In this document: piece by piece, positions 5,341-40,190 of the stretch | Numbering within the stretch: position 1 is the first letter of the stretch | How the letters are laid out: each line of letters starts with the position of its first letter | From: Mytilus californianus | Lineage: Eukaryota | NCBI RefSeq assembly: GCF_021869535.1 | Contig: NW_026262679.1 | Location: 93,558,001-93,622,000 of the forward strand | Direction of reading: 5' to 3' | Length of the DNA: 64,000 bases | Program-made: the position numbers and the translations under genes | The notes under the pieces: generated by a model | The model's database searches: none | Told to the model about the DNA's origin: nothing | What the model saw: the letters and a program-made list of their open reading frames with translations, nothing else

Positions 5341-6713
5341 CTCGTTCATTGCTTACTTATTTTTGTATTTTATTCATGTATGCCAAATCAATCCATAAAG
5401 GATCGAGGAATTTTAAGCACTGGGACCGAATCGTAATTTTAACATTAACTCTGGCGTAGAATCGCGTGTGCAAGGACTTTTCATCTAAAGATTCTAAACA
5501 GGATTGTGGTTCCTAGAGTGTTACAATCAACTTCTTGTTGAACTTGAACTGGTCTTCACAGCTCTTTTTGTAGGGATCCGCCGTTAAAATGTCACTTTGG
5601 ATTTTCCACATCGGTGCCTCTGAACGTTCTTTTTATTGGTTGCCGAAAGCCTGCAATCTTAATACAATATCCCATCTAGTTTACTTAAAAATTCATTTTG
5701 AGACTTCTGAATCTCTTTTCCAACTATCCAACTTTCAATGTCCATGGGATCCATTTTGACAAACTGGCACTCAGAAAAATTTGATGTACACAGTACGAAA
5801 GCAAGGCTAGAAGTAATACTCATATAACTACCTATTTACCACTAAAATTGTTTGCCCCAAAAATTCATACGCCTCGGAAATACTTTACCGAGAAGAAAAT
5901 AAATTCCCGTTTTATTGCGTGCCTCGGGAATTATCTATTCTTATTCGATTCATGAGATTTGAACATCGGTAAACATCTGCTGCCTAAATTTCTTAGCGTT
6001 GACATATTGTCTCCAACAATAGATATGTTTAAATTTTGTATCACATAGCACCAATTGTCGAACAAATGTTAGAATTATTTAGACTGCTTGCTTATCTAAA
6101 AGTAGAAATATCAAGCACGATATACTTCTATTTCACTATAAGAACAAATGAGCCGTGAAAATGTATGGCTCAAATTGAAAATGATATAGTATAGTAGCTA
6201 AAGTTAATAAATCAATAAAGTAAAGGTGAAATACCACCAAAATATAGTACGTCACATCCAGCCCCATGTTAAAAAAGGGTCGAAAAAGAAAATTCCCTTG
6301 AATTAAAGAGTTGAAGGAAATTAACCATTCATTTATTGCAGAGATTTTTTTCTGAGTCATAAACATATATCATGGGTGTTTCAAAGCACCATTTTTTTCT
6401 AATTTGGTGTTTTGGAAACTTGAGGTGACATGGATACTTCAGCTTGGGAAAAAAGTGGCTTGGTTTACTTCCGGTGATGTTTTTTTTTTCTTTTCTTATG
6501 TGCAATGATATGTTGTGATACATTTTCACAGAAGTACTGGACAGGATAAAACTTTACTCATGCCAAGTATTTCATCTTTTTTTGAAACAAGATACGTTCT
6601 GCACATTTTTGTGAAAATGTCAATTACCACAGACTAATTGGGGAAAACAATAGTGGTTTTCTCCTTATTTCAATACTGAAAATATCTAATCATAGATACC
6701 ATGCTTATAATGT

Positions 6714-6763
6714 TGTACGCCAGACGCGTGTTTCGTTTACAAAAGACCCATCAGTGACGCTCG
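6714..6763 (-). ncRNA. Degenerate minimal type I hammerhead ribozyme (Penelope/retrozyme type)
   Basis: Minus strand: GAGCGTCA-CTGATGG-GTCTTTTGTAAAC-GAAA-CACGC-GTC-TGGCGTA. Stem I (GCGTCA/TGGCGT), a CUGAUG(G) core, GAAA and a GUC cleavage triplet are present. One core substitution and one stem II mismatch. Confidence 0.65.
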
Positions 6764-18900: not shown

Positions 18901-18917
18901 TTGAAGGTCGCCGAATA

Positions 18918-20245
18918 ATTATTAAGGTCTTTCCTTTCACTATAAGGAAAGACCTTACTGTATTTCTTCTGATTATTATTATTATTATTTGGTCTTTTCC
19001 ACTTTTACGTGGAAAGACCTATTGGTTTTGTTCTGATTTTTAGGTCTTTCCACTTTTCCGAAGAAAGACCTATTGGTTTTGTTCTGATTATTATTTTTTT
19101 TCTTCCGCCTATTTTTTTTTTCCTTCGCTGTTTTTTTGTTTCGCAAGATATTGCTTAGAAATATGGCATATAATATCGAACAGTTAATACGCTTTTGAAA
19201 CTGACACCGCGTAACCAAAAACTTTTCGATGTAAGAGTTACCTCCCCGAACACTGTTTTTCTTGTTATTACTCATACGTCGCAACTGCATAAGAAACCGA
19301 TTAATTTATTTTACCAAATTCCTCGTTATATCCTCAGGATGATTTGATTGATTTTGACCAAAGCTATCTGGAGACTCCATATGAGAGTTATTTCCCCTTA
19401 TGCATTTGATATAAGTGATGTGCATTTGTAACTGAAAAACCATAACTTATAGAGACCTGAGGTCTTTTGATTTGAGGTCCTCGGTCCAAAAAAAAGAAAA
19501 TAAGGTCAAGGTCAAAGGTCAAGGTCATATTCTAAATTTTGATTTTGGCTTGTTATCACTTATTTTCAGAGATTGTATAAGATATCGACAAAATATTTTT
19601 ACAGAATTGTTAGTTACGACGTGTCGTAACACGTAAATTTTAGTTGAAAGGGTACGTAGACATTTAATGGGAGTTTTCGCCCCTTTTATATCTTATATTA
19701 GCTGTATGGTAATATAACTCATTAACAATATATAGTATAGACCTAGAGTGTTTTGATTTGAGGCCCTTGTTTCATGACCTTGAAATTGGGGTCAAGGTCA
19801 AAGCTTGATTTGAAGTTCGAGAATTTGACCTTTGCTTTAACTTTTAAATTATGCATAATAAACCTATGGGACTTTGTGCACTAAGTTGCAAGTCATATAA
19901 CCTTGAAGAAATCAACTGGAAATGACCTTTTGTAAACCGGAAGTAGCAATTTTTTGTACTTATTTATTGTAAAAGTACATAGAACCATATATTTTTGGAA
20001 TCAGTGTCAAGTAAACTATCAAATGAGACCGAAATTGAAATTTTTCAAACCGGAAGTAACAATTTATCTCCCTTATTTCAAACAAAAATGTGTAGAAACC
20101 ATATATTTTTAAATTCAACGTACAATAAGTTATCATTTGTCACTGAAAATAACATTTCTAACCGAGTTTTATAATTTTAACATCAAAATTTATCGTATCG
20201 GGTGGAAAGACCTTCAATTGTTCTCTGAACAATTGGTTTTTAATT
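18918..20245 (+). mobile_element. HINE A: non-autonomous Helentron-associated element with three stacked 5' hairpins
   Basis: 5' AGGTCTTTCC-loop-GGAAAGACCT hairpins, (TTA)n, body, 3' subTIR GGAAAGACCT and palindrome CAATTGTTC-TCT-GAACAATTG. This matches the DINE-1/HINE architecture. Confidence 0.8.
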
Positions 20246-21741
20246 ATTAGGTCTTTCCACTTTTCGGTGGAAAGACCTATTGTATTTGTTCTGATTATTA
20301 TTATTAGGTCTTTCCACTTTTCGGTGGAAAGACCTATTGTATTTGTTCTGATTATTATTATTATTATTTTTTTTTTTTTTTCTTCCGCCAAATTTTGTTC
20401 TTGCGATAAATATTTGTTGTGCAATATGTCGCTTAGATATTTCTCATATTGTATCGTATAGTTTATGCGCTTTTAAATTTCACCCTGCTAAGCCGAACAA
20501 TTATCTTTGTAAGAGTTATCTCCCTATTCACTGTTTATCAAGTGTGTGCATCTCCTTCGTAACAAAAAAAGATATCGACAAAATTCTTCTTTTTGGTTGT
20601 TCGTTACATCCTCAGGAATTTTTGGCTAATTTGGATCGAAGCGATTCGATGAAATTTTATAGGAGTTATCTACCTTTATCAAATAAATTTGTCGTTATGT
20701 TTTTGTTACTCATAAACTGTAAGCCGTATAAACCTATAGTCTTTTTATTTGAGGTCCTTGGATCCTAACTTCAAAAATGAGGTCAAGGTCAAAGGTCAAG
20801 GTCATGTTCTGAATTTTGTCTTTTGCTTGTTTTTGCATTTTCTCCGATATTTTTAATATTATATATAAAAGAACAAGTGCAAAATGTTTGTTATATTGTG
20901 ATGAAGATATGATACATTTGGTCTGAGACAATCCAGCGACATCTTATTGGAGTTATTGCCCCTGAAATGTTTTATTTTAAGGTAAATTGATTATTACTTC
21001 ATATTGGTACATGATAAAGCCATAAGATCTTTTGCAAAATGTTGGGTGACATATGACCTTGAAAAATGTCAACCGGAAGTGACCTTAAGTGAACTGGAAG
21101 TAGTCATTTTTGCACTTATTTCATGTAGAAGTACATAAAAACCATATATTTTTTGAATGGTCATACATTAATCTATCATTTGAGACCGGAAGTGATATTT
21201 TATAAACGGAAGTAGCATATTATCTCCCTCATTACAGGCATAAGTATATATAAACCATATATTTTTGGAATCAGTGTAAATAAAGCTATCATATGAAACC
21301 GAAAGTGACATTTTCTAAACCGGAAGTAGTCAATTATCTCCCTTTTTACAGGCAAAAGTGTATATAAACCATATATTTTTGGAATCAGTGTAAATAAATA
21401 TCATATGAGACCGGAAGTGTCATTTTCTAAACCGGAAGTAGCCAATTATCTCCCTTTTTACAGGCAAAAGTATATATAAACCATATATTTTTGGAATCGG
21501 TGTAAATAAAGCTATCATATGAGACCGGAAGTGACATTTTCTAAACCGGAAGTTGACAATTATCTCCCTTATTTTAGGCAAAAGTCTATAGAAACCATAT
21601 GTTTATTGAATCAGTATGATGAGACCTATCATTGGACGCCAATAGTAGCTTTGAGTAAACCAGAATTAGCTTCTCATCAATTATTTAGAAAATTGATGTG
21701 GAAAGACCTTCAATTGTTCTTTGAACAATTGGTTTTTAATT
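20246..21741 (+). mobile_element. HINE B with central 114-bp tandem array
   Basis: Two 57-bp hairpin heads, a body, about 4 intact 112-114-bp units (21181-21600) and the same 3' subTIR and palindrome. Confidence 0.85.
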
Positions 21742-23240
21742 ATTATTATTTTTTTTTTTTTTTCTTCTGCCAAATTTTGTTCTTGAGATAAATATTTGTT
21801 TCGCAATATGTCGCTTAGATATTTCTCATATTGTATCGTATAGTTTATGCGCTTTTAAATTTCACCCTGCTAAGCCGAACAATTATCTTTGTAAGAGTTA
21901 TCTCCCTATTCACTGTTTATCAAGTGTGTGCATCTCCTTCGTAACAAAAAAAGATATCGACAATATTCTTTTTCTAAATTGTTCGTTACATTCTCAGGAA
22001 TTTTTGGCTAATTTGGATCGAAGCGATTCGATGAAATTTTATAGGAGTTATCTACCTTTATCAAATAAATTTGTCGTTATGTTTTTGTTACTCATAAACT
22101 GTAAGCCGTATTAACCTATAGTCTTTTCATTTGAGGTCCTTGGATCCTAACTTCGAAAATGAGGTCAAGGTCAAAGGTCAAGGTCATGTTCTGAATTTTG
22201 TCTTTTGCTTGTTTTTGCATTTTCTCCAATATTTTTAATGTTATTTATTAAAGAGCAAGTGCAAAATGTTTGTTATATTGTGATGAAGATATGATACATT
22301 TGGTCTGAGACAATCCAGCGACATCTTATTGGAGTTATTGCCCCTGAAATGTTTTATTTTAAGGTAAATTGATTATTACTTCATATTGGTACATGATAAA
22401 GCCATAAGATCTTTTGCAAAATGTTGGGTGACATATGACCTTGAAAAATGTCAACCGGAAGTTACCTTGCGTGAACCGGAAGTAGTCATTTTTGCACTTA
22501 TTTCATGTAGAAGTACATAGAAACCATATATTTTTTGAATAGTCATACATTAATCTATCATTTGAGACCGGAAGTGATATTTTATAAACCGGAAGTAGCA
22601 TATTATCTCCCTTATTACAGGCATAAGTATATATAAACCATATATTTTTGGAATCAGTGTAAATAAAGGTATCATATGAGACCGAAAGTGACATTTTCTA
22701 AACCGGAAGTAGCCAATTATCTCCCTTTTTACAGGCAAAAGTGTATATAAACCATATATTTTTGGAATCAGTGTAAATAAATCTATCATATGAGACCGGA
22801 AGTGACATTTTCTAAACCGGAAGTAGCCAATTATCTCCCTTTTTACAGGCAAAAGTATATATAAACCATATATTTTTGGAATCAGTGTAAATAAATCTAT
22901 CATATGAGACCGGAAGTGACATTTTCTAAACCGGAAGTAGCCAATTATCTCCCTTTTTACAGGCAAAAGTATATATAAACCATATATTTTTGGAATCATT
23001 GTAAATAAAGCTATCATATGAGACCGGAAGTGACATTTTCTAAACCGGAAGTTGACAATTATCTCCTTTATTTCAGGCAAAAGTCTATAGAAACCATATG
23101 TTTATTGAATCAGTATGAAGAAACCTTTGATTGGACGCTAATAGTAGCTTTGAGTAAACCAGAATTAGCTTCTCATCAATTATTTAGAAAATTGATGTGG
23201 AAAGACCTTCAATTGTTCTTTGAACAATTGGTTTTTAATT
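21742..23240 (+). mobile_element. HINE C: tandem near-duplicate of B with one extra 114-bp unit
   Basis: Colinear with 20370-21741. TGAGAC recurs at 22677, 22791, 22905 and 23019 (period 114). It has no 5' hairpin of its own. Confidence 0.85.
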
Positions 23241-24326
23241 ATCATTATTATTATTATTCTTTCCGCCAAACTTAAACGACATTTCCCAAAAAAAGTACGC
23301 GACATGTTAAAATGATATTAGGTATCTAGTATTGGTTAACCAAAAGCTATCTTGTGGTGAGGGCACGACCGCGTAACATTTCCATTATAGCGGTTATCTC
23401 CCCTAACACCGAAAACCTTTTTATCATTCTAACTCCATTACCATAATAGGTAGAAAAAAACGAAGGGTGGAATTTGTTCAAGAGCAGATCCTGGTTCTTC
23501 ATTACATTTAGATTGAAAAGATTCAATGACTCATTGGTAGGGTTATGTCCTTTGAAAATTGACCAATGTCGGTTGGCCACTAAAACTCAGAAACCGTAAG
23601 TTGTAGGCACCTAGGATCTTCACCAATGATCATCAATTCACGTGACCATGAAAACTGATCTAAGGTCAAAGGTCAGGGTCATGACCTAGATTTTGACCTT
23701 AGCTTGTTATTGGATTTACTCGATAACCGTAAAAGATGTCTAATAAAATGTAATAGAGAAAATGTGTGTCTTGGCAAGATCTACATTTGTTATGTGGAAT
23801 CAAAATTATTGGACCAAATATTATGGACCTAGGGCACCAAAACTGTTTTTCGGGTCCGAAATGATGATTTTTTGCTTATAACTCAAAAGAGGTTAGAGAA
23901 AGAAAGAAACTTTGAATTGCAAAAATGTTCAGCATAATAAGATCTATAAAATTAGGTCAATATCAGAGGTCAAGGTCCCTAGCAACGACATAAAACACCT
24001 TAGTAACCATATATTTTTGAACTTAGAAGGCTATGAATAATATAAATATGAAATTTTTAATACTGGAAATGACATATTTGTCCCTAGCAACGCTTAATTT
24101 TTTTAACTTGAAAGACTATGAATAGTATATGACATTTATAATACTGGAAGTAATATTTTTATCCTTAGGAATGATTGTTTTCCTTAGGAATGATTTTTGT
24201 CCTTAACAACCACTTGTTATGAACATAAAAGTCCTTAGCAACCATATATTTATGAACTAAGAAGGCTATCAATAAAAGAAAAAAGGAAAGACCTTTCAAT
24301 TGTTCATGAACAATTGACTTTTTAAT
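23241..24326 (+). mobile_element. HINE D
   Basis: Starts (TTA)n-CTTTCCGCCAAAC and ends GGAAAGACCTTT-CAATTGTTCATGAACAATTG. An inverted copy lies at 26753-27862. Confidence 0.8.
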
Positions 24327-26752: not shown

Positions 26753-27862
26753 TATTAAAAGTCAATTGTTCATGAACAATTGAAAGGTCTTTCCTTTTTC
26801 CTTTTATTGATAGCCTTCTTAGATGAAAAATATATGGTTGTTAAGGACTTTTATGTTCATAACAAGTGGTTGCTAAGGACAAAAATCATTCCTAAGGATA
26901 AAAATATTACTTCCAGTATTAAAAATGTCATATGTACTATTCATAGCCTTTAAAGTTAAAAAAATAAGTGATTGCTAAGGACTTATATGTCGTTGCGAGG
27001 GACAAAAATGTCATTTCCAGTATTAAAAAATTCAAATTTATATTATTCATAGCCTTCTAAGTTCAAAAATATATGGTTGCGAAGGTTTTTTAATACGTTG
27101 CTAGGGACCTTGACCTCTGACCTTGACCAAACTTTGTAGATCATATTTTGCTGAACATTTTTGCAATTCAAAGTTTCTTTCTATCTCTAACCTATTTTGA
27201 GTTATAAGCAAAAAATCTTCATTTCGGACCCGAAAAACAGTTTTGGTGCCCTAGGTCCATAATAGTTGGTCTTATAATTTTGGACCCATGCATTACAAAT
27301 GTAGATCTCGACAAGACACACATTTTCTCTATTACATTTTATCAGCCATCTTTTACGATTATTTAGTAAATCCGATAAAAAGCTAAGGTCAAAATCTAGG
27401 TCATGACCTTGACATTTGACCTTGAAACATTTTCATAGTCACATGAATTGATGATCATTGGTGAAGATCCTAGGTGGCTACAACTTACGGTTTCTGAGAT
27501 TTAGTGGCCAACCGACATCGATTAATTTTCAAAGGGGCATAACTCTACCAATGAGTCGTTGAATCTTTCCGATCCAAATGTAACGAAGAACCAGGGTCTG
27601 GTCCTGAACAAATTTCACCCTTCAGTTTTTTTCTACCTATTATGGTTACGGTGTTAGGGGAGATAACCGCTATAAAGGAAATGTAACGGGGTGGTGCCCT
27701 AACCACAAGATAGCTTTTGGTCAACCGATACTTGATACCTAATATCATTTTAACATGTCGCGTACTTTTTTTGGGAAATGTTAAAGTTTGGCGGAAAGAA
27801 TACTAATAATAAAAGAAATACAGTAAGGTCTTTCCTTATAGAAAAAGGAAAGACCTAAATAA
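26753..27862 (-). mobile_element. HINE E: inverted copy of D, with its 5' hairpin
   Basis: Reverse-complement colinear with 23241-24326; hairpin AGGTCTTTCC..GGAAAGACCT at 27826-27856. Confidence 0.85.
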
Positions 27863-27864
27863 TA

Positions 27865-29157
27865 ATTAAAATGTCACCTGTTCTTGAACAATTGAGAGGT
27901 CTTTCCTTTTCGTAATGTAAAATATATGTTTCAATAGGCGAAGAATACATTGAAAAGCTCAAAAACACACATAAAACCCTTAAAATATGACAAAAAACAC
28001 ATATATTCCGCTATTTGCGAAATGACCTTGACTTTTGACCTTTTGACCTTTGTCAAGGTCATTAGTCCACAATGTCATTGGAAAAGACCCCATGGGTCTA
28101 GACCCTTTGGTTCAAGTGTTAAGGCTAATTTTGTCTTTTCAGAAACAGTTAACAGGGGTTATGCCCCTTACGGATAGGTCAAATCTCTTCAGTCAAAATG
28201 TAAAAAAGTTGCGGCATTATGACTCAAAAATTTTTCACTATTTACAATTTCTGTAAGATTAACCGTTTTGGAGATATTCCATAAAAGTTGTAATGTCAAA
28301 GGTTAAGGTCAACCTTAAAAAGCTTTAAAACACACTAAAAATCCTTAAAATAAGGTCAAAAACACATAATTCGCTATCTGGGACATGACTTTGACATTGT
28401 GACCTTTGTCAAGGTCATTGGTCCCAAATGTCATTGCTGAAGACCCCATGAATCTAGGAGATTTTGGTTATATAGTAAAAGCTGATTTTGTCTTTTCAGA
28501 AACCTAAAACAGGGGTTATGCCCCTTACAGAAAGGTCAAATCTCTTCGGTCAAAATGTAACAAAGTTGCTCCTTAATGACCCAAACATTTTCCACTATTC
28601 AAAACTTCTGTAAGTATAATGGTTTCTGAGATTATCCCATAACAAGGTCAAAGGTCAAAGGTCAAGGTCAACATACAAATTTGACCTTAAGGCATTTTCA
28701 AAGTCACATAAATTGATGATCATTGGTGAAGAACCTAGGTGGCTACATCTTACGGTTTCTGAGTTTTAGTGGCCAAACGATATCGGTTAATTTTCATAGG
28801 GGCAAAACCCTACCAATGAGTCGTTGAATCTTTTCGATCCAAATGTACCGAAGAACCAGGGTCTGGTCTTGAACAAATTTCACCCTTCGTTTTTTTGTAC
28901 CTATTAAGGTTACGGTGTTTGAATGATAACAAAGTTTTTATGTTTCGGATGGATAACTCCGGACCGACAAAATTTTACGACTCACAGGGTGAGTTCCGGA
29001 TAGGAATTTGTGACACTGATACAAAGTGTGAACCTGAAAGCGACATGGCTTACGGTTACGGAGGGAAATTTTGTCAAAGTTTGGCGGAACAAAAAGAATA
29101 ATAATCAGAAGAAATACAGTAAGGTCTTTCCCTTTTGGAAAAGGAAAGACCTTAATA
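27865..29157 (-). mobile_element. HINE F with two ~360-bp internal units
   Basis: 3' subTIR and degenerate palindrome at 27875-27907; internal direct units ~27960-28320 and ~28330-28690; 28700-28930 is shared with E (27430-27660); 5' hairpin at 29121-29153. Confidence 0.8.
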
Positions 29158-29357
29158 ATTAAAAACCATTTGTTCAGAGAACAATTGAAGGTCTTTCCAC
29201 CTTAGTCAGGTTAAAAAAATTAGATGAAAAAGTAGCTCTGGTGTCAATAGATTACATTTTAAACTGAAATAAGGGGAGTAAAATGCCAACAGTTACATAT
29301 ATTTCTATCTACAGAAAGGGTCTTTAATTTCAGATATCAGTGTTTATTTTTTGGAAT

Positions 29358-29463
29358 AGTGTATTTCAACCATAGATATTAAAATCCACATCAATAAAAG
29401 TATGATATCTGAATACCATACCTTTCTTTATGTGGATTTTAGTATCTATGGTTGAAATGCACT
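29358..29463. repeat. Long hairpin with 34-bp arms in the Helentron 3' region
   Basis: AGTGTATTTCAACCATAGATATTAAAATCCACAT (29358-29391) pairs with ATGTGGATTTTAGTATCTATGGTTGAAATGCACT (29430-29463); the two substitutions would form G-T wobble pairs. Confidence 0.85.
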
Positions 29464-30431
29464 GTTCAATAAAGTTATCTGATATTTGTGAATCCAAAAA
29501 CTCACTTCTGATATTTTAAGAAAGGTTTTTTTAACACTTATTCTGGAGATGGTCAATATGAAATATTCTAGGTAATTGGGTATTCCCGGTGTCATGATTA
29601 AGCTAAGTTAAGTTATTTGTCAAACTAAGTTTAAATTAATTTTACCAGGAAATTAAGCCCTAGTGCCTCATTTTTTTTCTGAAATTAATATGAATAAAAA
29701 ATTTGTTGAGCATAATCAAAATTTATTACTTACTACAACTAACAGAAGCCTTTGATACAAACACCAGTGTCAAATCTTCATTTTTTGCTGATTAATTATT
29801 ATCAACTATTTCACCTCATGGCATTTGCTATTTTATATATAAAACAATGCACAAGAGCTAAAACAATTGAGTTCCAAATCCATCTTCTTACTGCTGAGGA
29901 AATCGTTTTTCATTCTGAAAGAAAAAAATGAGACTTGCTTTATATGAAATTCGTTGAGTGGTCTATTTTTTAAAATGACATGATGATGCATCATATTATA
30001 ATTTCTGGTAGACTGGAGTAATTTTTGAATTCTAAAATTTTAGTCTTTGATTGTAAAGGTCAGACAAAAACACAGAATAATGACAAAGGCATTCAATACG
30101 AGTTTACTTTATTAAAAAACTAAAATCTTTATTAATGTCGGTTAGAAATATCTTGATTGATCGTTTTTTGCTGAACATCTTTCATGTATATTCAGCAGGA
30201 TTAAACACCATGATCACTAGATCATTTATGGTGTTTGTTGCCAGGGCCCTGTCTGTTATCAGCACTAAATCATGTGTTAGTGCTGATATCCGCCTCCTAC
30301 GACGGGGACGAAGGGTTGGACTTTAGGAGGCATAATTTTTATATTTTTGTAATGTCTGAAATCAAAATTAAAATTTATATTTGTTAAACAGCTTCATATT
30401 TATAGCTCTGTTGGTTCTACAACTTTTTTCA

Positions 30432-31364
30432 TTACTTGTTTTTGTCGCATTGTATTACTATTTTCAGTGCCTCATGGTAGCTGTAATATGTGAGATTAAT
30501 TGCAACCTCTTTTTCAGGACATCCTTTGACATATACATGATCAATAAGTGTACCACCCTCTGTTGTTGGACTACTGACAAGCTGTCTGAAACCTCTCAAT
30601 TGCATAAAATTTAAAACTGTACAACCCCCTTTCAAAATATCTTGATTAAAATCACCAATGACAACTATTTTTTCTGATAATTCTTCCATCTTAGAGATTA
30701 ATGTCTCCAAATTCTCCAAAAATTTTCCAAAATTATACTTCTGAGTTCTGTATATTGTAGCAACTAAAATAGTTCTTGTTGTTATCTTGAAAACTATACA
30801 TTCCAAATTTGAAGTCAATTTGCATAGTTCTGTCTCTGAAGAAAGCTTGTAAAATACACACACACCACCATGCTGCATTTCCTTTAAAGATAAATATAAT
30901 GAATTGTCGTTATCAAAAGCTAGAGATCTTGTCAAATGAAAACCATCATATCCCATCATTTCAAAGCAATTGAATTCCTGATTAGCCCAGTTTTCAGCAA
31001 GACAAATGTAATCAGCGATTCTAAAGTCTGGATTTTGTTTCAAGTCTTCTGCATGAGTCTGTAAACCTTGAATGTTGTGATACATAATCTGAAGAGTATT
31101 TGCTTGTTCCTCACTTGAATCCTCAACTTCAGGCAAAAATCTTGTCATTTCTGTAACACCCTTTACAATATCAGGATCACAGAAGATTTTCTTGTCAAAT
31201 TCTTCAGCCTCTATGCTTTTAATGTGTAGACCAGATTTTGAGATTACACTACTAAGGGCTACATATGCTTGACCATATGTGAAACATTTGTTCAGATCAA
31301 CAACACATTCTTCAACTGTCAAACCTTGAACTTTGTGAATAGTGCAAGCCCACGCTAATTTCAA
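30432..31364 (-). pseudogene. Helentron helicase motifs V-VI plus C-terminal AP-like (EEP) endonuclease
   Basis: [24 protein letters not shown], then [49 protein letters not shown]. The helicase ALSR Arg appears replaced by Ser and the SDH Asp by Tyr. Confidence 0.92.
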
Positions 31365-32765
31365 TGGAAACTGTTTTCGTACGTAGTTGCTTAAATGAAT
31401 GTCTTGAAGGTTTCAATCCGACACAGCGTTTTCCACTGATTATTTTTTGTAAATTATAATTATTCCCAACTCTTTCATTGTCAAAATTAACATATATGGT
31501 ACTAGGGAGGGCATTAGGTGAGTAGTCTCTGATAGATATTACTGTTCCCATTACACCATTAACCAAACCATCTGCCGTGTCCTCATTTTTGATAAGCATT
31601 ACCCTTGCTCCCTCAGCTAAAAGAATAGATATTGGAAGACAAACATCTGACTTTGTACAATGAATTTTTTTGCGAGTCAATTTCCCAGAAGTTTTGTTTT
31701 TTTCGTAGTCTTCTGCTTCAATTAGTTTTGGTTCTGTACATAGTTTTATTATCATTTCCTTGTTAAAGGTATCAACCTCTGCATTTGTAGAGTATATGTG
31801 CAAAGCTTTATCAGGTCCATCACCAAAGCATTGTTTTAAAGATTCTTTATCAGAGTATGACAGACTTTCATTTTTCTGTTTCACACGCAGTCTATTTAAT
31901 AGTTCTGCAAACAAGCCATCCTCATGTTGACGCATAATTTCATCCAGCTCAGCAATTTCAAACAAACCATTCCATAGTAGATTTGAAGGATTAGCGGGAT
32001 CATCTACATACAATTTGTCTACCCTTTTTGTTCTTACAGTTGGTAACTGATTAAAATCGCCAACAGCATTTACTGAAACACCTCCAAATAAACAATTGTC
32101 TGGTCTTTTTTCACTTGTCTAAGTCGCTCATGAATGAAAAACAATAATTTCTTGTTGACCATAGAAATTTCATCAAAATCAAGATTTGCAAATTTTCTAA
32201 CTTACCTCTGAGTGAATTTATTTCGTCTTCACCTAAAGTTGCATGATCAGGTGATAGTGATTTGAAAATTCCAAGATCACTGTGAATGGTCAATCCATGG
32301 ATGATAAATGCAGCTGTTCTAGTTGGAGCTTTTAACAAAACTGTGAGATCATCTGGATTATCTGAAGTTTGTGCTAATATTCGAGTTGCTTCATATTGAA
32401 TACACTTAATCAAGTGACTTTTACCTGTTCCGGCTCCTCCTGTGATGAATAAATGTAAAGTCCCTGATGTTTTTCCATTTGCTTTCTGTATGCACCAATC
32501 TCTTACTTTATAGAGAATTCTTCTTTGTTTCACATTCAAACTTCTGAGTCTTGGAATAATTTCATTTTTTTGTGAGGGAAACTGATAGATTAGTTCCAAC
32601 AGATGATAAGCTCTTTTCATTATTCAAATCTGGTATTGCTGATTCTGACAAATCTTCTTCAATTACACTTGTTACTTTCCCTTCATCTATACATTCTCTT
32701 CTGTTTACTTCTGCTTCTGGACATAACTCACACCATGCATCTTCTTTTGGATCTTTTTCATGCAA
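31312..32765 (-). pseudogene. PIF1-family SF1B helicase (frameshifted)
   Basis: LFITGGAGTGKSHLI (Walker A), ILI(D)EISMV broken by a frameshift, FGGVSV.AVGDFNQLP, LDEIMRQ, GARVMLIKNEDTADGLVNGVMGTV. Confidence 0.92.
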
Positions 32766-32835: not shown

Positions 32836-34430
32836 TTAACTGAACTCTGGAAACTTAACTCTACCACAAGTAAAGAAATTTTCATATGTATCAAATAGTG
32901 GTGGTTTTAACTGTTCATTACATCTGTATGGTAAAAAGAGTTGCAAAATGCTTTGAGAGTATTTCTCTGGGGAAGTTTCCTGTGAGAAACGTGGATATTT
33001 GATAACTGCAGGTGAGGTCCGTGTGCGCTTTCGGATATATCCAAGATTGCCTTCAAGTTTGAAGGTTGTTTCTTCATTGATTTTCTGGGGTAACTGTGAT
33101 TCTCGTAAAACACTGTATTCAGAACCGAACCTTGCAAGACACATTTTGAAAAAAATATCAATGTTTGGTCTACCTTTATATCTATCAACTATATTATTCA
33201 TCCAAATACTATTCTCATCTTCATCTTCACTGTCACTATTACTCTTTTTTCTTTTAGAAGACTTGTTACTTTGTTGTTTCTCCAGGTCTTTCAAAGGAAT
33301 ACTCATTCTACATGGATTTTCACCAACAGGTATAAATTCTACTTTCCTAGAACATTCTCTTTATCGCAATCCAGTTACTCTAAACACAGCTTCCTGTGCA
33401 CTAATCTACCTATGGTGTTAGTATGAAGTTCCAATTTTTTTCATAGTCTGTTGTGCATTTAAATTTCCTTCTTCAGCTTCATTTTTGGTGTGCTGTAGTA
33501 GTAATCCTTGCTCTCGCTCAGATTTACTTATGTAACTGATAATGTATACAACACAGGAAAATGCATCCAAAATATATTGTATGTCCATGTTAGCATTCCA
33601 AGCCCTTAAAAGATGTGGATTATACTGATTGGTGTATATTTCATTTGCCTCACGTTTAAGAACGACTGTGTTTCGATTGGTGATGAAACAAAAATATTTC
33701 TCAAAGCTTTCTTGGGTTAGACCTGCCTTCTTGAAAATTTCAGATACATCTAAGTTTTCATCTTCATGCTCTTTTATAACTTTCCATAAGGCTGATAATA
33801 TTTCCTTTGCTACTTCTTCATCTTCTTTTGAATCCTTATCTGGATCACTTGGTTCTGAGATGAATGTTCTAGTTGAGGGAGGTCTTGGGAAATTAAAACG
33901 ACATACTGTTCCTTTTTTTTTCACAAGTTTTTGAATGATTTTTGCTATGTTGGTGTACTGCCATAACAATGTCATGCAACTCTTTGTCTTCCGTTTCATC
34001 TGGTATCTCACATGTAATGTACTTGTCAATAAAGCTTTCTACTTCTTCATTATCATCCTCGCCAAATTTTGGAGCATTTTCTACCCAAAATAAACAATGA
34101 GTGTGAGGAGAACCCCTTAGTTGAAATTCCACTCTGTAAAAATAATCGTTTATTTTCCCTATTGGTGCAACTTCTCACATGATAACATTCTTCAGAAATG
34201 TATGGAATCTATGATCAAAAATTCTTGCTGCTGTAACTGGATTGCTACAAAGAACTTTACATTTTTCATCCCATGTCATATTTTCACTACTTCTCATGTC
34301 ACCCTGCTGTTTTAATATTGTGTTTACAATTTCTGACCATCTGAAGTCTGCAGAAGAAAAAGAACAGAAGAATGTGGGGACTCCTGTCTTATCATAGCAA
34401 ATATTTTTTTTTGTGAACTTTGCCAATATG
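32836..34430 (-). pseudogene. Helitron Rep (HUH/Y2 replication initiator) region
   Basis: [32 protein letters not shown] (HUH), [61 protein letters not shown]. Confidence 0.92.
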
Positions 34431-34559
34431 GGGTGTTCCTCGAATAGGTTTTAAATATTTGATAGCTTCATCTTTTTTAAACAATTCTTTCAAGGTTTCC
34501 TTGTTGCACAGCATTTCTCTAGGAACTTTCTTTCCATCTTTTGAAAAAGGACACTCTTT

Positions 34560-36090
34560 TCAGAGAGATATCTGTACATTTGAAATCACACTATTGAGCT
34601 CCGTTAAATATTGACTGAAAAATATGTAGGATGTATCTCTTGCAAATCTATTTTCAACACTCATCAATCGAAGGTTTAAGTACCTTCGAATAGTCAGTTT
34701 TTCATCACGGTCTTCATCAAAAGTATTTTTGCCAGATGGAAAGTGTACAGAAAAGGTTTTTGCTTCAATTCCTGGTTCTTGGAGAACACTAAGATGACTG
34801 TTATTTTCTGCTGACGCTATATTAAATACACGGTCAAAGCATAAATCTAAGGCCTCCTGTCCAATATCAGCAGGTTGTAAACAAGTATCTAACTGAACGC
34901 CATGTAATCTATCATCAATGTAGCGAACAGGTTCACTTTCAATTTCTCTTTCACTTCCTTTTGTAGAAGACTTGTTTTCCTTTAATATTTCTAACTCTTC
35001 TTCCTTTTTTCTGTTATTCCTCACATGATCAGGATCATCAGAATCAGATTCACCATGAACCACTTGATCATCATTAGATCCAGGAATTGGATTAATCCAT
35101 TCATTGTTGATTGTTATATCTTTGTACCATATGTTTTGATCTTTTAAATACAAAAGAGCTTGCTCTAAATGATTTGGTCTAACAAACTGATATTTGTCAT
35201 ATCCATTGTAGCTGAGCTTTCTTTTTAGTTTCACCTTAATCAAAAGACTTTCATCTCCAGAATGTGGTAATGAAGAGGTTACTTTTTTCAAATCAGATGG
35301 GACACAAACTACAGGTGCATGAACACCTTTTTCGTCCCCCTTTCGGTAAAGCCATAATTTTCATAAATGAAATGTTTTGAGATATAAGTTGTTGCTCTAT
35401 TGAATTCAGCTGTTTTAATTCTAATGGAACATCTTCTAGTAAAAGGCTATTCGAAAATGAGTCTGCAGGTATGCTACCTTTCTGCATTTTACGATGACAA
35501 GTGTAGCAAATCCATAGACTTGTTCTACATGTTCCTTCAAAAGTACAATTTGTCTGACAATCATCTGTACATATGTGTTGATATTTATCTGTTGTGTATA
35601 AATCAAACATAGAGTTAGGGTATGAATCCTTTTTACAGATCAGAACTTGTTTTTCAAAGAACAACCTCAAGCAACAAGAACAAACATATTCTGGACCCTT
35701 TTTTACTTCATCTCTAATTTTTCTGATGACCTCCGGTATTTGCATGTTCTCTTCTATAAGAATTTCAGGGCGCATTGAATTTTAAATCTATGTGCATCAT
35801 CATCTGCATACTTGTGTATACTTGCTTGTTTCATCCTTTCTCTGTACTCATTGTCTTCTTGATATTTTAGAATTTCAGATTCTATCAAAGCATCTCTGTA
35901 ATCCTCATCGTCTTGATATTTCTGAATACCTGCTTGTTCCAAATTTACTCTGTATGTCTCATCTTCTTCATATTTTTTCATGCCTAAACATATTTTTTTG
36001 AAACGTATTCCATCATTTTCCCATTTTTTTCTTTTTAATGTGTTAGTCTTTCTAGCTCTAAATTCATCATCTATCCAGTACTTGATCCTT
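34560..36090 (-). pseudogene. Helitron pre-Rep region: charged KY(Q/E)DDEDYR-like repeats, Cys-rich zinc finger and conserved linker
   Basis: KYEEDETYR/KYQDDEDYR/KYQEDNEYR/KYADDDAHR repeats; GPEYVCSCCLRLFF..WICYTCHRK; LIKVKLKRKLSY..VRPNHLEQALLYLK..NIWY. Confidence 0.8.
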
Positions 36091-36289: not shown

Positions 36290-36730
36290 ACAACTTCATA
36301 ATGATTTATATCTCCTTTATGTTGAAGATAAATTGCGCGTCTGGCGTAAATATAAAATTTCAATCCTGGTATCTATGATGAGTTTATTTGCATGGTCATT
36401 TACACTATTATTGCTGCATATTTGAGATGAAGAATATTCTATCCATGAACCATTATAAAAAGTGTAAATGTCTGTCTTAAGAAGGTCAGCAAAACCTATT
36501 ATTTCCAGTTCAGTTCCCCATACATTATTTTGGTTCATTTTCATTGTTTGTATATGCTGTTCTACTGTTGTAAATTGAGGCTGTAAAAACGACTTCAACA
36601 TTTCTGCATTCATCATTAAATGATCAACTATTGCCCTTCTTACATTTCCATAAATTCTTGTCTATTAGATAGTGCATATGAAATAGCTCGAAAAAGACAG
36701 TTGCCATCACCTGTGATAGTCTTTGTAGCA
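36290..36730 (-). pseudogene. OTU-family cysteine protease domain of the Helentron polyprotein
   Basis: TITGDGNCLFRAISYAL (catalytic Asp/Cys loop), WGTELEI, and IYLQH...NHYEVV (His loop), interrupted by a stop/frameshift and a 51-bp insertion. Confidence 0.88.
36337..36387 (+). mobile_element. 51-bp insertion derived from the 3' side of a hammerhead-bearing (Penelope/retrozyme) element
   Basis: GCGTCTGGCGTAAATATAAAATTTCAATCCTGGTATCTATGATGAGTTTAT, flanked by TTGC on both sides. It matches the reverse complement of 6690-6727. Removing it restores DHAIYLQH in one frame. Confidence 0.8.
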
Positions 36731-37089
36731 GATGGTAGTCCCATGTTATATATATTTGGTGTAATCTTTTTGGAAATGTTCTTGATTGGTATTTTAACAA
36801 TAGTACAGAGCTTTCTTTTTGAATCTGTATTCAAAGGTTTGAAATCATAAATATTATCAGTTGTCGATAAAATTTCAACATCAGATTCATTATCCATTAT
36901 ACCCTCATCAAAGTGTACTTCATTAGTTTTCTCAATGACATTACTTTCATTACTACAAATGTTAAACTTGAGTATTTCTGGTGATATGTGGTCACTCATA
37001 GTTAAATTTTCTCGAGTTTTGAGAACATCATGGCTATTTCTGTTTTCATTTTCTAGATTTTCAAAAAATTGAGAGTTGCTGGTGCTATC

Positions 37090-37740
37090 TTGGTTATAAC
37101 TTTCTAAAAGTTCATCATTATTGGTATGGTTTTCAATACAAATACTGACTCCTGTTACCTCAAACCATTGATTTTGGCTTGCTCCAGCTTTCATGTTACA
37201 ACAATATTGATAGAGATGATCTAGATTGCTTAACTTTAAAAGTAAACTTTTACCATTACTATGATGTAAGCCAAACTCGTTTCGTGCATGAGAATCAAAC
37301 AAGAGTAAATCTTGATTATGTTTCAAGGCTAAACAAGTAGTAGCATATGCACATATAAAACAAGCATCATAGTCTATTAAAGATTCTTGTAAAGCTTGGT
37401 CTAAAGGTAAAGAATTTCCAAATTCACTAAAATCTATAATTCCCAAGGTATCTATGACAGCTGTTATTGATTCTCTTCTTGAAATTTTCAGGAACTTTCC
37501 TGACATTTCTATAATTTGTGGTAGGTCTAATACAAGGAGATGAATATTATCACCATGAATACGGCTATATATTTTATTTCCGTCATTCAAAACACGATCT
37601 AAATACATCTGATCGCAATCCTTTAAACTTTTAAATTTACTATGGGCAAGAGCTGATAAACAGTTTTTAACACATTGCTTCCCACTATTAATTCCAAATC
37701 TCTTATCTCCTTGGTGAAAACTACCTTGGACTACAAAATT
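37090..37740 (-). pseudogene. Herpesvirus tegument-like deubiquitinase (peptidase C76-like) domain
   Basis: The open frame upstream of the called ATG reads VVQGSFHQGDKRFGINSGKQCVKNCLSAL..DQMYLDRVLNDGNKIY and later LLLFDSHARN. This resembles the QC...DxIL..G...FD(P/S)H pattern of herpes USP domains; recognised by eye only. Confidence 0.7.
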
Positions 37741-38031
37741 CCTATCATCTGATCTATAGCTACTAACCTATATACTGTTTTCAGCTATTGTACCTTTTTT
37801 CTTATGACTTTACATCTTTAACAAATCATTCTCTTTTTCAATTTCTATAATGAAATTAACATTACAATCAAGTTGTGTATTGTCAGTTTAAATAATTACG
37901 CTATTATTTTTATCTTTGAGTTCTCTAAATGTTTTGGTTTTTTTAATGTTCATGTTTTTCATTTTAGCATCGCTTGAAGTATTTCCTATAATTTGAACCA
38001 GATTCGATTGCATCATGCAAATTTAATTTTT

Positions 38032-38979
38032 TCAGTTCACATTTGCCATTAGAATTTGAAAATCCAAACTTGATTCCACTGATTTAGAATCAAGATTTAA
38101 ATCCATTGCTTTAGAATCCAGATTTGATTGTGTTGCTTCATAATCCAGATTTGCTTTAGTTGCTTCAAAATCCAAAATTAAGCTAGTTGCTTTAGAATCC
38201 AGATTTAAATCCATTGCTTTAGAATCCAGATTTAAATCCATTACTCCAGAAACCAGATTTAAATTAATTGCTTCATAATTCAGATTTGATTTAACTAATT
38301 CACTTAATTTGATTGATTTATTTGATTTGATAGATTCATTTAATTTGCATGATTTAGAAGGTTCAATTAATTTGCTTGATTTGTTTAATTTGATATATTC
38401 ATTTGATTTATTCAACTCGATAGATTTGAATACTTCAGTTCCATTAGGACAGTTCAGAGAGATGACACTCTGGTCTTGTTTTATAGGACAATTTAAAGAG
38501 TTGATGCTCTGATCTTGTTTTATTGGACAGTTTAGAGAGATGACACTCTGGTCTTGTTTTATAGGACAGTTTATAGAGTTGACGCTCTGATCTAGTTCTA
38601 TAGGACAGTTTATAGAGTTAACGCTCTTATCTAGTATTATAGGAATGTTTAAAGAGTTGACGCTCTGATCTTGTTTTATAGGACAGTTTATAGAGTTGAC
38701 GCACTTATCTAGTATTATAGGACAGTTTATAGAGTTGATGCTCTGATCTTGTTTTATAGGACAGTTTATAGAGTTGACGCTCTGATCTTGTTTTATAGGA
38801 CAGTTTATAGAGTTGACGCTCTGATCTTGTTCTATAGGACAGTTTAGAGTGGTGACGCTCTGTTTATCTGTACAAAGGAAATCCTGTTCACCAGTCTGCT
38901 TCAATCTTTTCTCCCTTAATTTGTCCCTTTTTTCTTTCCTTTTAGTATCATATTTCTTTCTACCTTTGCGAGTTATTGT
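38032..38979 (-). pseudogene. Helentron N-terminal region: basic segment, 13-aa Cys repeats and 9-aa repeats
   Basis: The frame is open from 38979 (TITRKGRKKYDTKRKEKRDKLREKRLK), followed by about 10 full CPIKQDQSVNS(I/L)N units (39 bp) and LDSKAMDLN-like units (27 bp). Same strand and directly upstream of the C76-like domain. Confidence 0.65.
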
Positions 38980-39689
38980 CTACAACAAAAGAAACAAATT
39001 CAATTAATGTAAAAATAACATGTAGTATGCTTGCAAATGAGACAAAATTTTCACCAAACAATGTAATCTTATAATGGCCTCCAAAAAAGAGCAAAATCCA
39101 TAATGCATAAAATGCACTTACTTGAAAAAATTTAAAACAATTTGAAAAGTTGTGTTTGTCATTAACTGGAAAAAGGAAAAGGAAGTAACTCACTATCAAA
39201 TCCATTCTGACCTGATGTGGCTGTGTATTTATACATTCGACACAACAAAACAGACATCCAACTTTAATATACAAATGGTTTACTGCCAGTCAGTAGAGGA
39301 CCTAAAGTGACTATATTTTCATTCTACAGCCACCTTTGGAGACCATCTGGAGCTATGTGCATCTTCAACAATGGCCCTTTTCCAACATTATAGACTAAAA
39401 TCCATATAGTAATGATTTTTTTCTTGATATTTTTGTTTTGATTTAACAGTCTATATATAAATGTTCAAAAAAGATTGTGGATTTCTCTTACAATCACAGT
39501 ACCCTAAAATATATTATCATCAAAATTTATATAACATGACAACTGTATATTTTTTGGTGTGAGTACTGGGTAGAGAGCATGCCAGATATTTTTTAACTTG
39601 TGAAAACATGTAAAACCTCATCACATGGTGTGGTTAGTTCTTATGAAGCTTAAATCTGCTTTTTAAGAAATTTCAAGAACTCTGTGAAC

Positions 39690-40190
39690 TAGAGGCTCTA
39701 AAGAGCCTGTGTTGCTCACCTAGGTCTATGTGCATATTCAACAAAGGACATTCTCCAACAATGTAGATGAGAATAGAATCTCTATTTTGTTGATCTTTAT
39801 TGCTCATCATTTAGGATGTTTAGTTTCTTTCTATCTTCTTTAGATTTTGCTAAAAAAACAAAAGAGGAGGAACACAATCCTCATTTAAGGGCAATCACTT
39901 CTATAAAGGGTGACAGTTCACTAACTATATCTGAACTTGTTTGTAGATCTTGCCTTGCTGATCAGTTTTGCTATTTAACGTTTCTATTTATATATTTATT
40001 TTCATCATAAAAGGGAAAATCCAAAAAAAATTGATAAAATTCGTTATATAAGGGCAATTACTGCAATAAGGAGTCGCCTGATGATTTCCCTAATATTTTC
40101 ATAATTGAAGATCTTGACTTTCTTGCCATTTTTGATACTTTAAGGTTTGATTTATCTATTATAACTTTCAACATGTTCAAAAAGCACAGG
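39690..40190 (+). repeat. Fragment of another HINE-like family
   Basis: Begins AACTAGAGGCTCTAAAGAGCCTGTG (hairpin AGGCTC/GAGCCT) and contains AAGGGCAAT(C/T)ACT motifs typical of HINE bodies. Confidence 0.4.

Follow-up and report, generated by a model that had tools for sequence, protein, structure and literature searches.

A decayed Helentron copy with remnants of two deubiquitinase-type domains in the mussel Mytilus californianus

Results

Structure of the element

The window analysed is a 64,000 nt stretch of the Mytilus californianus assembly GCF_021869535.1 (contig NW_026262679.1, positions 93,558,001 to 93,622,000, forward strand). All positions below are coordinates within this window; the open reading frame (ORF) of the element is on the minus strand, as is each of its regions and domains. 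The locus almost certainly holds a Helentron (HLE2) of the Mytilus type, in a copy that is dead. The ancestral product is one polyprotein of around 2,800 residues, composed of N-terminal repeats, a VTD (viral tegument-like deubiquitinase), a linker, an OTU domain, DUF6570, a Rep domain, a PIF1 helicase and an AP endonuclease, in that order.

The former N-terminus (38035-38970) aligns from residue 1 of the Mytilus protein P0002, which opens MPRKGRK; in the mussel copy, the site of the start codon reads ATA rather than ATG. A basic start is followed by tandem repeats of 13 aa and 9 aa, the DNA of which forms arrays of 39 bp (10.7 copies, 38445-38862) and 27 bp (7.7 copies, 38086-38294). The 13 aa units of this region (38086-38862) are Cys-Pro repeats. 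Relatives have other repeat units at the same N-terminal place, hence the region turns over fast. Between the repeats and the VTD lies a decayed stretch (37768-38034) with stops at 38034, 38025, 37890, 37812 and 37770 in the VTD frame, opposite which P0002 has sense residues.

On the 3' side of the OTU domain, Pfam and the ORF list place DUF6570, Helitron_like_N, PIF1 and Exo_endo_phos in order, with the ORF stop at 30432. The DUF6570 domain (35091-35481) is split by a frameshift and matched in two ORFs (E 1.2e-6 and 1.6e-9). The Rep domain, an HUH endonuclease of the Helitron_like_N type (33421-34447; E 8.7e-7 and 8.6e-8), is fragmented, having stops at 34177 and 33420, and its motifs PHTH and YIISYISK are readable. 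Also fragmented is the PIF1-type helicase (31250-32620; PIF1 E 4.4e-5, Pif1_2B E 6.1e-6), the frame of which shifts relative to the protein P0020, and in which the Walker A motif GGAGTGKS can be read. The AP endonuclease (Exo_endo_phos, 30432-31079) is matched above the cut-off, at E 3.9e-7, and closes the ORF.

The element has, according to Pfam, a Rep (HUH)-PIF1 fusion with a C-terminal AP endonuclease, colinear with single-chain relatives, along with DUF6570, the marker domain of HLE2. Such a fusion forms part of the definition of Helentrons (Thomas et al. 2014, PMC4067079), whilst DUF6570, Herpes_teg_N and the endonuclease are features of HLE2, in which OTU is located upstream of RepHel (HELIANO, Li et al. 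2024, PMC11417382). HLE2 subgroup b shares Herpes_teg_N, DUF6570, Exo_endo_phos and an OTU domain upstream of RepHel with the mussel element (PMC11417382), and domain content suggests that the element belongs there. However, HELIANO places most extra domains, OTU included, in separate ORFs, whereas relatives of the mussel element have OTU in the same chain (PMC11417382).

Inverted-repeat and hairpin searches of the window gave no convincing pair of element ends (subterminal inverted repeats, a 3' palindrome and a T/T insertion), yielding just AT-rich 11-13-mers and, at 39724-39686, a single 3'-type end without a partner.

The two protease domains

A preliminary description of this DNA had placed a C76-like and an OTU domain, both of deubiquitinase type, upstream of a Helentron Rep. 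All the motifs it listed were found on the minus strand where it had put them, and Pfam domain order, fold and the motif spacing of homologues bear out both the domain identities and the Helentron context.

The first domain (37130-37735) matches Herpes_teg_N, or peptidase C76, and is itself open. Its predicted fold and Cys/Asp-x-His triad identify it as a VTD, an enzyme defined by a catalytic Cys and an invariant Asp-x-His motif (PMC9741609). The motifs GSFHQG (37725-37708), GKQC (37683-37672) and FDSH (37299-37288) lie inside a stop-free stretch of 375 codons (36640-37767), at the end of which is the GDGNCLFRA of the OTU domain. The catalytic motifs QC (37677-37672; Gln 37677, Cys 37674) and DSH (37296-37288; Asp 37296, His 37290) align, in the profile, with the QC and DSH of PDB entry 8ADD. 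This is a zebrafish Helitron VTD structure, that of DrT1-VTD2, the one solved in PMC9741609. In the VTD frame, no ATG occurs before 37608, which is already past the catalytic Cys codon (37674), just as the preliminary description had noted in placing the start of the C76-like domain upstream of the called ATG.

The C76 assignment stands on both profile and structural comparisons. The Pfam match to Herpes_teg_N has an E value of 2.3e-8 and scores 34.4 bits (cut-off 25) over model positions 1-163 of 183. Searching the PDB with the single VTD sequence gave too little signal (best E 0.1); a profile built on 42 sequences resolved the matter, with 8ADD matched at E 3.9e-32 and tegument proteins of herpesviruses at E values from 3.9e-14 to 1.1e-7. 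An AlphaFold2 model of the domain, with a pLDDT of 92.8, shows the papain-like, alpha-beta-alpha fold of this class, has DrT1-VTD2 as its best structural match (TM 0.78, rmsd 2.9 by Foldseek) and superimposes on M48 of MCMV (2J7Q) at TM 0.73-0.76; all six PDB matches at E <= 0.001 were VTD or M48 structures. In the structural alignment with 8ADD, the mussel VTD is around 21% identical, and it differs further in being of a mussel lineage and in a pseudogene copy.

Catalytic residues are conserved across relatives: alignment extends over all three sites in 151 of 181 relatives, and 148 of these have the Cys/Asp/His triad. The residue equivalent to E377 of DrT1-VTD2 is Asp here, and an acidic one (Asp or Glu) in 165 relatives, by far the larger part of those that align at this site; that equivalent to D376 is Leu here and Ser in 31/38 close relatives. 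In DrT1-VTD2, E377 binds the ubiquitin tail, and D376 and E377 are the acidic residues for its C-terminal RxR (PMC9741609). Two conserved residues have been replaced in the mussel copy: the Ala two residues past the catalytic Cys (Ala in 33/35 close relatives) is Lys, and a conserved Trp (35/37) is Cys.

A low-complexity, fast-evolving linker (36860-37120) separates the VTD from the OTU cysteine protease domain (36290-36711), which is broken. The D-x-x-C (Asp 36708 and Cys 36699, within GDGNC at 36711-36697), WG (WGTELE from 36520) and His (NHYE from 36306, the His itself at 36303) motifs have the spacing of an OTU domain, save for a 1 bp deletion and a 55 bp insertion. From Cys to Trp there are 179 nt, as compared with 60 residues in 7/8 homologues, equivalent to a 1 bp deletion near 36650; from Trp to His there are 217 nt, as compared with 54 residues in 8/8 homologues, equivalent to a 55 bp gain. 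The reading frame joining Cys and His is interrupted by the frameshift near 36650, by stops after it and by the insertion, such that WGTELE and NHYE sit in two open stretches other than that of GDGNC. With the Cys, WG and His motifs in no single open frame, no OTU protein is possible from this copy. Pfam does recognise OTU, but in two pieces (E 0.0073 and 0.00041; 17.2 and 21.3 bits) that both fall under the 23.3 cut-off because the domain is split across frames. Long relatives pass this cut-off, and the His motif is present in 23 of the 28 close relatives having the OTU Cys motif.

Insertion within the OTU domain

Geometry, read depth and RNA indicate that the 55 bp insertion (36333-36391, plus strand) is a piece of a transcribed mussel repeat with a very high copy number. 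A 4 bp direct repeat, TTGC, flanks it at 36333 and 36388, and a joint skipping the 55 bp (36332-36388) was seen in two runs. The summed depth of run X1 reaches 113,059 in the bin 36344-36624, versus 29-40 in bins 36625-36905 and 35782-36062. The insert is the cut-off end of this abundant repeat: reads extending past it enter a CTGATGA...GAAAC sequence, which we take to be a hammerhead ribozyme core. Such a core would agree with the mussel retrozymes described in PMC7229834. At gathering scores, Rfam has no matches in the 64 kb window, the ribozyme core being absent from the stretch inserted in the OTU domain. A second remnant of the same repeat is found at 6677-6728.

Degradation of this copy

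The mussel copy is a pseudogene, unable to express VTD or OTU, a point that the preliminary description did not report. Its ATG is lost, the stretch from the repeats to the VTD has five in-frame stops, and the OTU domain is split; over the whole ORF, chained alignments indicate around 11 frame changes and around 11 in-frame stops, and there is no uninterrupted RepHel frame. Contigs of three DNA runs, from two studies, match parts of 37768-38034 with 0-1 differences. An assembly error was considered as the source of the upstream stops and rejected, since contigs from the runs of both studies agree; the 1 bp deletion near 36650 is outside the contigs listed. Runs X7-X20, the word shares of which are small, play no part in these results.

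Transcription was assessed in RNA run X21, which has the same species label, by reading around 6% of the run at >= 90% identity. Depth was zero in 28 of the 30 bins, and all 910 placed reads fit partly and are confined to the two bins with the inserted repeat. No reads from this one sample, at the around 6% read, fell on the VTD. The RNA silence of the locus in a single sample is weak evidence on its own. After insertion, the copy would have decayed neutrally, and it would have no present function.

Relatives and conservation

With a length limit of 2,000 aa, the 40 closest proteins include 37 named Mytilus, at up to 87% identity, and 22 have both Herpes_teg_N and OTU; at this limit, none of the 40 is a complete polyprotein. 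That similar proteins might already be in databases had been anticipated, and the VTDs of Mytilus proteins annotated as 'OTU domain-containing' or 'Peptidase C76 domain-containing' (e.g. P0002, P0004, P0009 and P0017) are 71-87% identical to that of the mussel copy. These database proteins have the same N-terminal repeats and downstream domains, and in several of them a single open chain spans the VTD and the OTU domain.

More widely, there are 770 relatives at E <= 0.001 in a library clustered at 50% identity. Sixteen long relatives were chosen among the 150 matches listed. VTD and OTU occur together in 13/16 of these, with OTU ahead of the VTD in two; three have no OTU match. Helitron_like_N is found in 14/16, and in six, of 2,587-3,003 residues, VTD, OTU, Rep, PIF1 and endonuclease are all in one chain. 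Twelve of the 181 relatives have 3 to 7 VTD stretches per chain (e.g. P0048, P0075, P0083, P0101, P0129, P0132, P0147 and P0156).

Comparison across Mytilus subfamilies (P0009, P0015 and the P0017 group) gives an identity of 71-78% in the VTD and 72-82% in the OTU domain, versus 18-27% in the linker. Pairs involving P0036 and P0037, the linkers of which have 25 residues, were excluded from this contrast as uninformative, and pairs within a subfamily (P0017, P0019 and P0021) were not used. The contrast may be read as purifying selection on VTD and OTU in transposing lineages, protein identity serving as a proxy rather than dN/dS, and adds a small amount of support for selection maintaining both protease domains.

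When the VTD model was compared with viral structures, the third-ranked match was an unnamed 810-residue protein, Q06VS9 (TM 0.78), presumably of an ascovirus from its accession series. Ranks 27-30 were uncharacterized giant-virus proteins at TM around 0.5. These matches may represent VTD-like enzymes outside the herpesviruses; the main text of PMC9741609 contains no mention of 'ascovir' or 'giant virus'.

Other repeats in the window

Just past the endonuclease stop is a broken, arginine-rich small frame (30104-30332, minus strand; MPPK...RPRRRRRISAL...), the DNA of which has a copy number like that of the element (depth 274 in run X1). The frame may represent a further small gene belonging to the element; it was not called a gene, there being no Pfam match, 0/24 candidate protein relatives and Atlas scores <= 0.80.

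The unpaired Helentron-type 3' end (39686-39724, minus strand) is upstream of the ORF and consists of a short subterminal motif and a GC hairpin (39708-39693). There is no partner end for it in the window, and it may belong to a non-autonomous Helentron. A degenerate neighbour (39333-39401, minus strand) is 72% similar to it. At 29320-29501 is a fold-back element with arms of 89 nt, 75% complementary and 4 nt apart, one of which resembles 39380-39408. Copies of a dispersed repeat, in which a short hairpin motif occurs along with 114 bp tandem arrays, are found at 27370-27906, 28634-29201, 18916-19142, 20201-20368 and 21072-23715; these copies are probably non-autonomous rolling-circle elements.

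Discussion

A Helentron with both VTD and OTU is an architecture already known, as is the class of the enzymes (PMC9741609; both domains also in HELIANO, PMC11417382). Most non-viral VTDs are located in Helentrons, 121 of which also have OTU (Erven et al. 2022, PMC9741609); VTD Helitrons have been found in molluscs, and pseudogenized copies exist (PMC9741609). The closest characterised systems are those of zebrafish, DrT2 and DrT1-VTD2 (8ADD), in which the same set of domains occurs in the same order in a Rep-helicase-AP endonuclease element, with the same triad. The preliminary description had looked for novelty in function, which does not survive comparison with the literature: the deubiquitinase activity of VTDs is already in PMC9741609, where protection from the proteasome was proposed, as was a Helitron source for the herpesviral domain and with it exchange with herpesviruses, and the idea of polyprotein cleavage is found in Thomas et al. 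2014 (PMC4067079).

Reaction with ubiquitin probes has been shown for three VTDs of zebrafish Helitrons, which cleave K48 and K63 chains and in some cases K11, and two of which act on NEDD8; DrT2, with its single VTD and an OTU domain, is ubiquitin-only, weaker and with negligible NEDD8 activity (PMC9741609). A role during transposition is proposed in the same paper, which states that the OTU domains of transposons lack assays, and cargo such as OTU has been argued to be non-essential (PMC11417382). A literature search, with most subscription journals beyond its reach, found neither a published functional test of a Helentron OTU domain, or of why Helentrons keep deubiquitinases, nor any later paper (2023 on) on Helitron VTD deubiquitinases.

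The conservation of both domains relative to the linker fits a tethered module that shields RepHel from degradative ubiquitin. In active elements, the VTD and OTU domain, tethered to RepHel, would clear the transposase, and proteins close to it, of such ubiquitin, which would let the transposase last until transposition is complete. We infer that this anti-degradation role in living elements is probable, if only just. Taken as a whole, a dead Helentron copy descended from an ancestor with such a role is very probably the best explanation of the locus.

The main rival to anti-degradation is action in trans on host chromatin or cullins, whereby the proteases would remove K63-linked or histone ubiquitin, or NEDD8 from cullins, at sites of repair or silencing; their effect would be to damp the response of the host, not to shield RepHel. 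This agrees with the cutting of K63 chains by the zebrafish VTDs, and of NEDD8 by two of the three (PMC9741609), and chromatin signalling has been suggested for the OTU domain (PMC4067079). However, DrT2, the tested element of the same VTD and OTU layout, has negligible NEDD8 activity (PMC9741609), and fusion to RepHel in a single chain suits action in cis; we regard the in-trans role as unlikely, though a serious contender.

Self-processing seems improbable; here the Rep, helicase and endonuclease parts would be released from the polyprotein by one of the proteases or by both, in the manner of viral deubiquitinases acting at diglycine sites. OTU cleavage of the polyprotein has been proposed (PMC4067079), the viral precedent is stated in PMC9741609 and DrT1-VTD2 cleaves an RLRGG peptide substrate (PMC9741609), yet a [L/R]xGG site is present in 0/3 long Mytilus proteins and in just 5/12 long relatives, at positions that are not shared.

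The VTD of this locus shares its fold and triad with the tegument C76 domains of herpesviruses (MCMV M48, EBV BPLF1 and HSV-1 UL36), which are 12-20% identical to it and joined to a capsid-bound tegument protein, not a transposase. Exchange with large DNA viruses had been raised as a possibility, and an ancient transfer from Helitrons to Herpesviridae is proposed in PMC9741609. Nevertheless, a recent exchange of the VTD with a large DNA virus, be it a mollusc herpesvirus or some other, is very improbable. The fold match to herpesviral tegument deubiquitinases is clear (TM 0.67-0.78), but at such low identity, and the named viral proteins in the top 26 are all of vertebrate herpesviruses; the profile also favours the zebrafish Helitron VTD over herpesviral chains, the latter at 3.9e-14 or weaker. 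Hence the fold search gave no sign of mollusc herpesviruses, and nor did viral contigs, where 0/103 candidate stretches were confirmed by a search that finds close relatives only; the many relatives in the clustered library, with Helitron_like_N in most of the long ones scanned, also argue against a viral source. In metagenome contigs, likewise searched for close relatives only, 0/71 candidates were confirmed.

That the locus is a domesticated host gene making a stand-alone VTD enzyme is scarcely credible: the triad is intact in a long stop-free stretch, the same sequence is found in the DNA runs of two studies and VTD genes have been domesticated in insects and nematodes (PMC9741609), but the first in-frame ATG is past the catalytic Cys, near-invariant VTD sites have non-conservative changes, run X21, in the around 6% read, is without reads over the VTD, and the identity of the VTD to its relatives resembles that of the adjoining broken domains.

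The locus itself is of little weight, as a single degraded example of an architecture described before, and close relatives of it are in protein databases. Why Helentrons keep deubiquitinases is a question that belongs to the family, and intact relatives, not the dead copy, are suited to testing it. Rep proteins form a covalent intermediate with DNA, and DNA-protein crosslinks are destroyed through ubiquitin-guided proteolysis. In living Helentrons, both deubiquitinases might be active, with complementary chain specificities, and shield the covalent Rep-DNA (phosphotyrosine) intermediate from this crosslink proteolysis, a suggestion that we make tentatively and consider doubtful. If true, shielding of the Rep-DNA intermediate would constitute a transposon counter-defence against crosslink repair, as a property of the family rather than of this dead copy.
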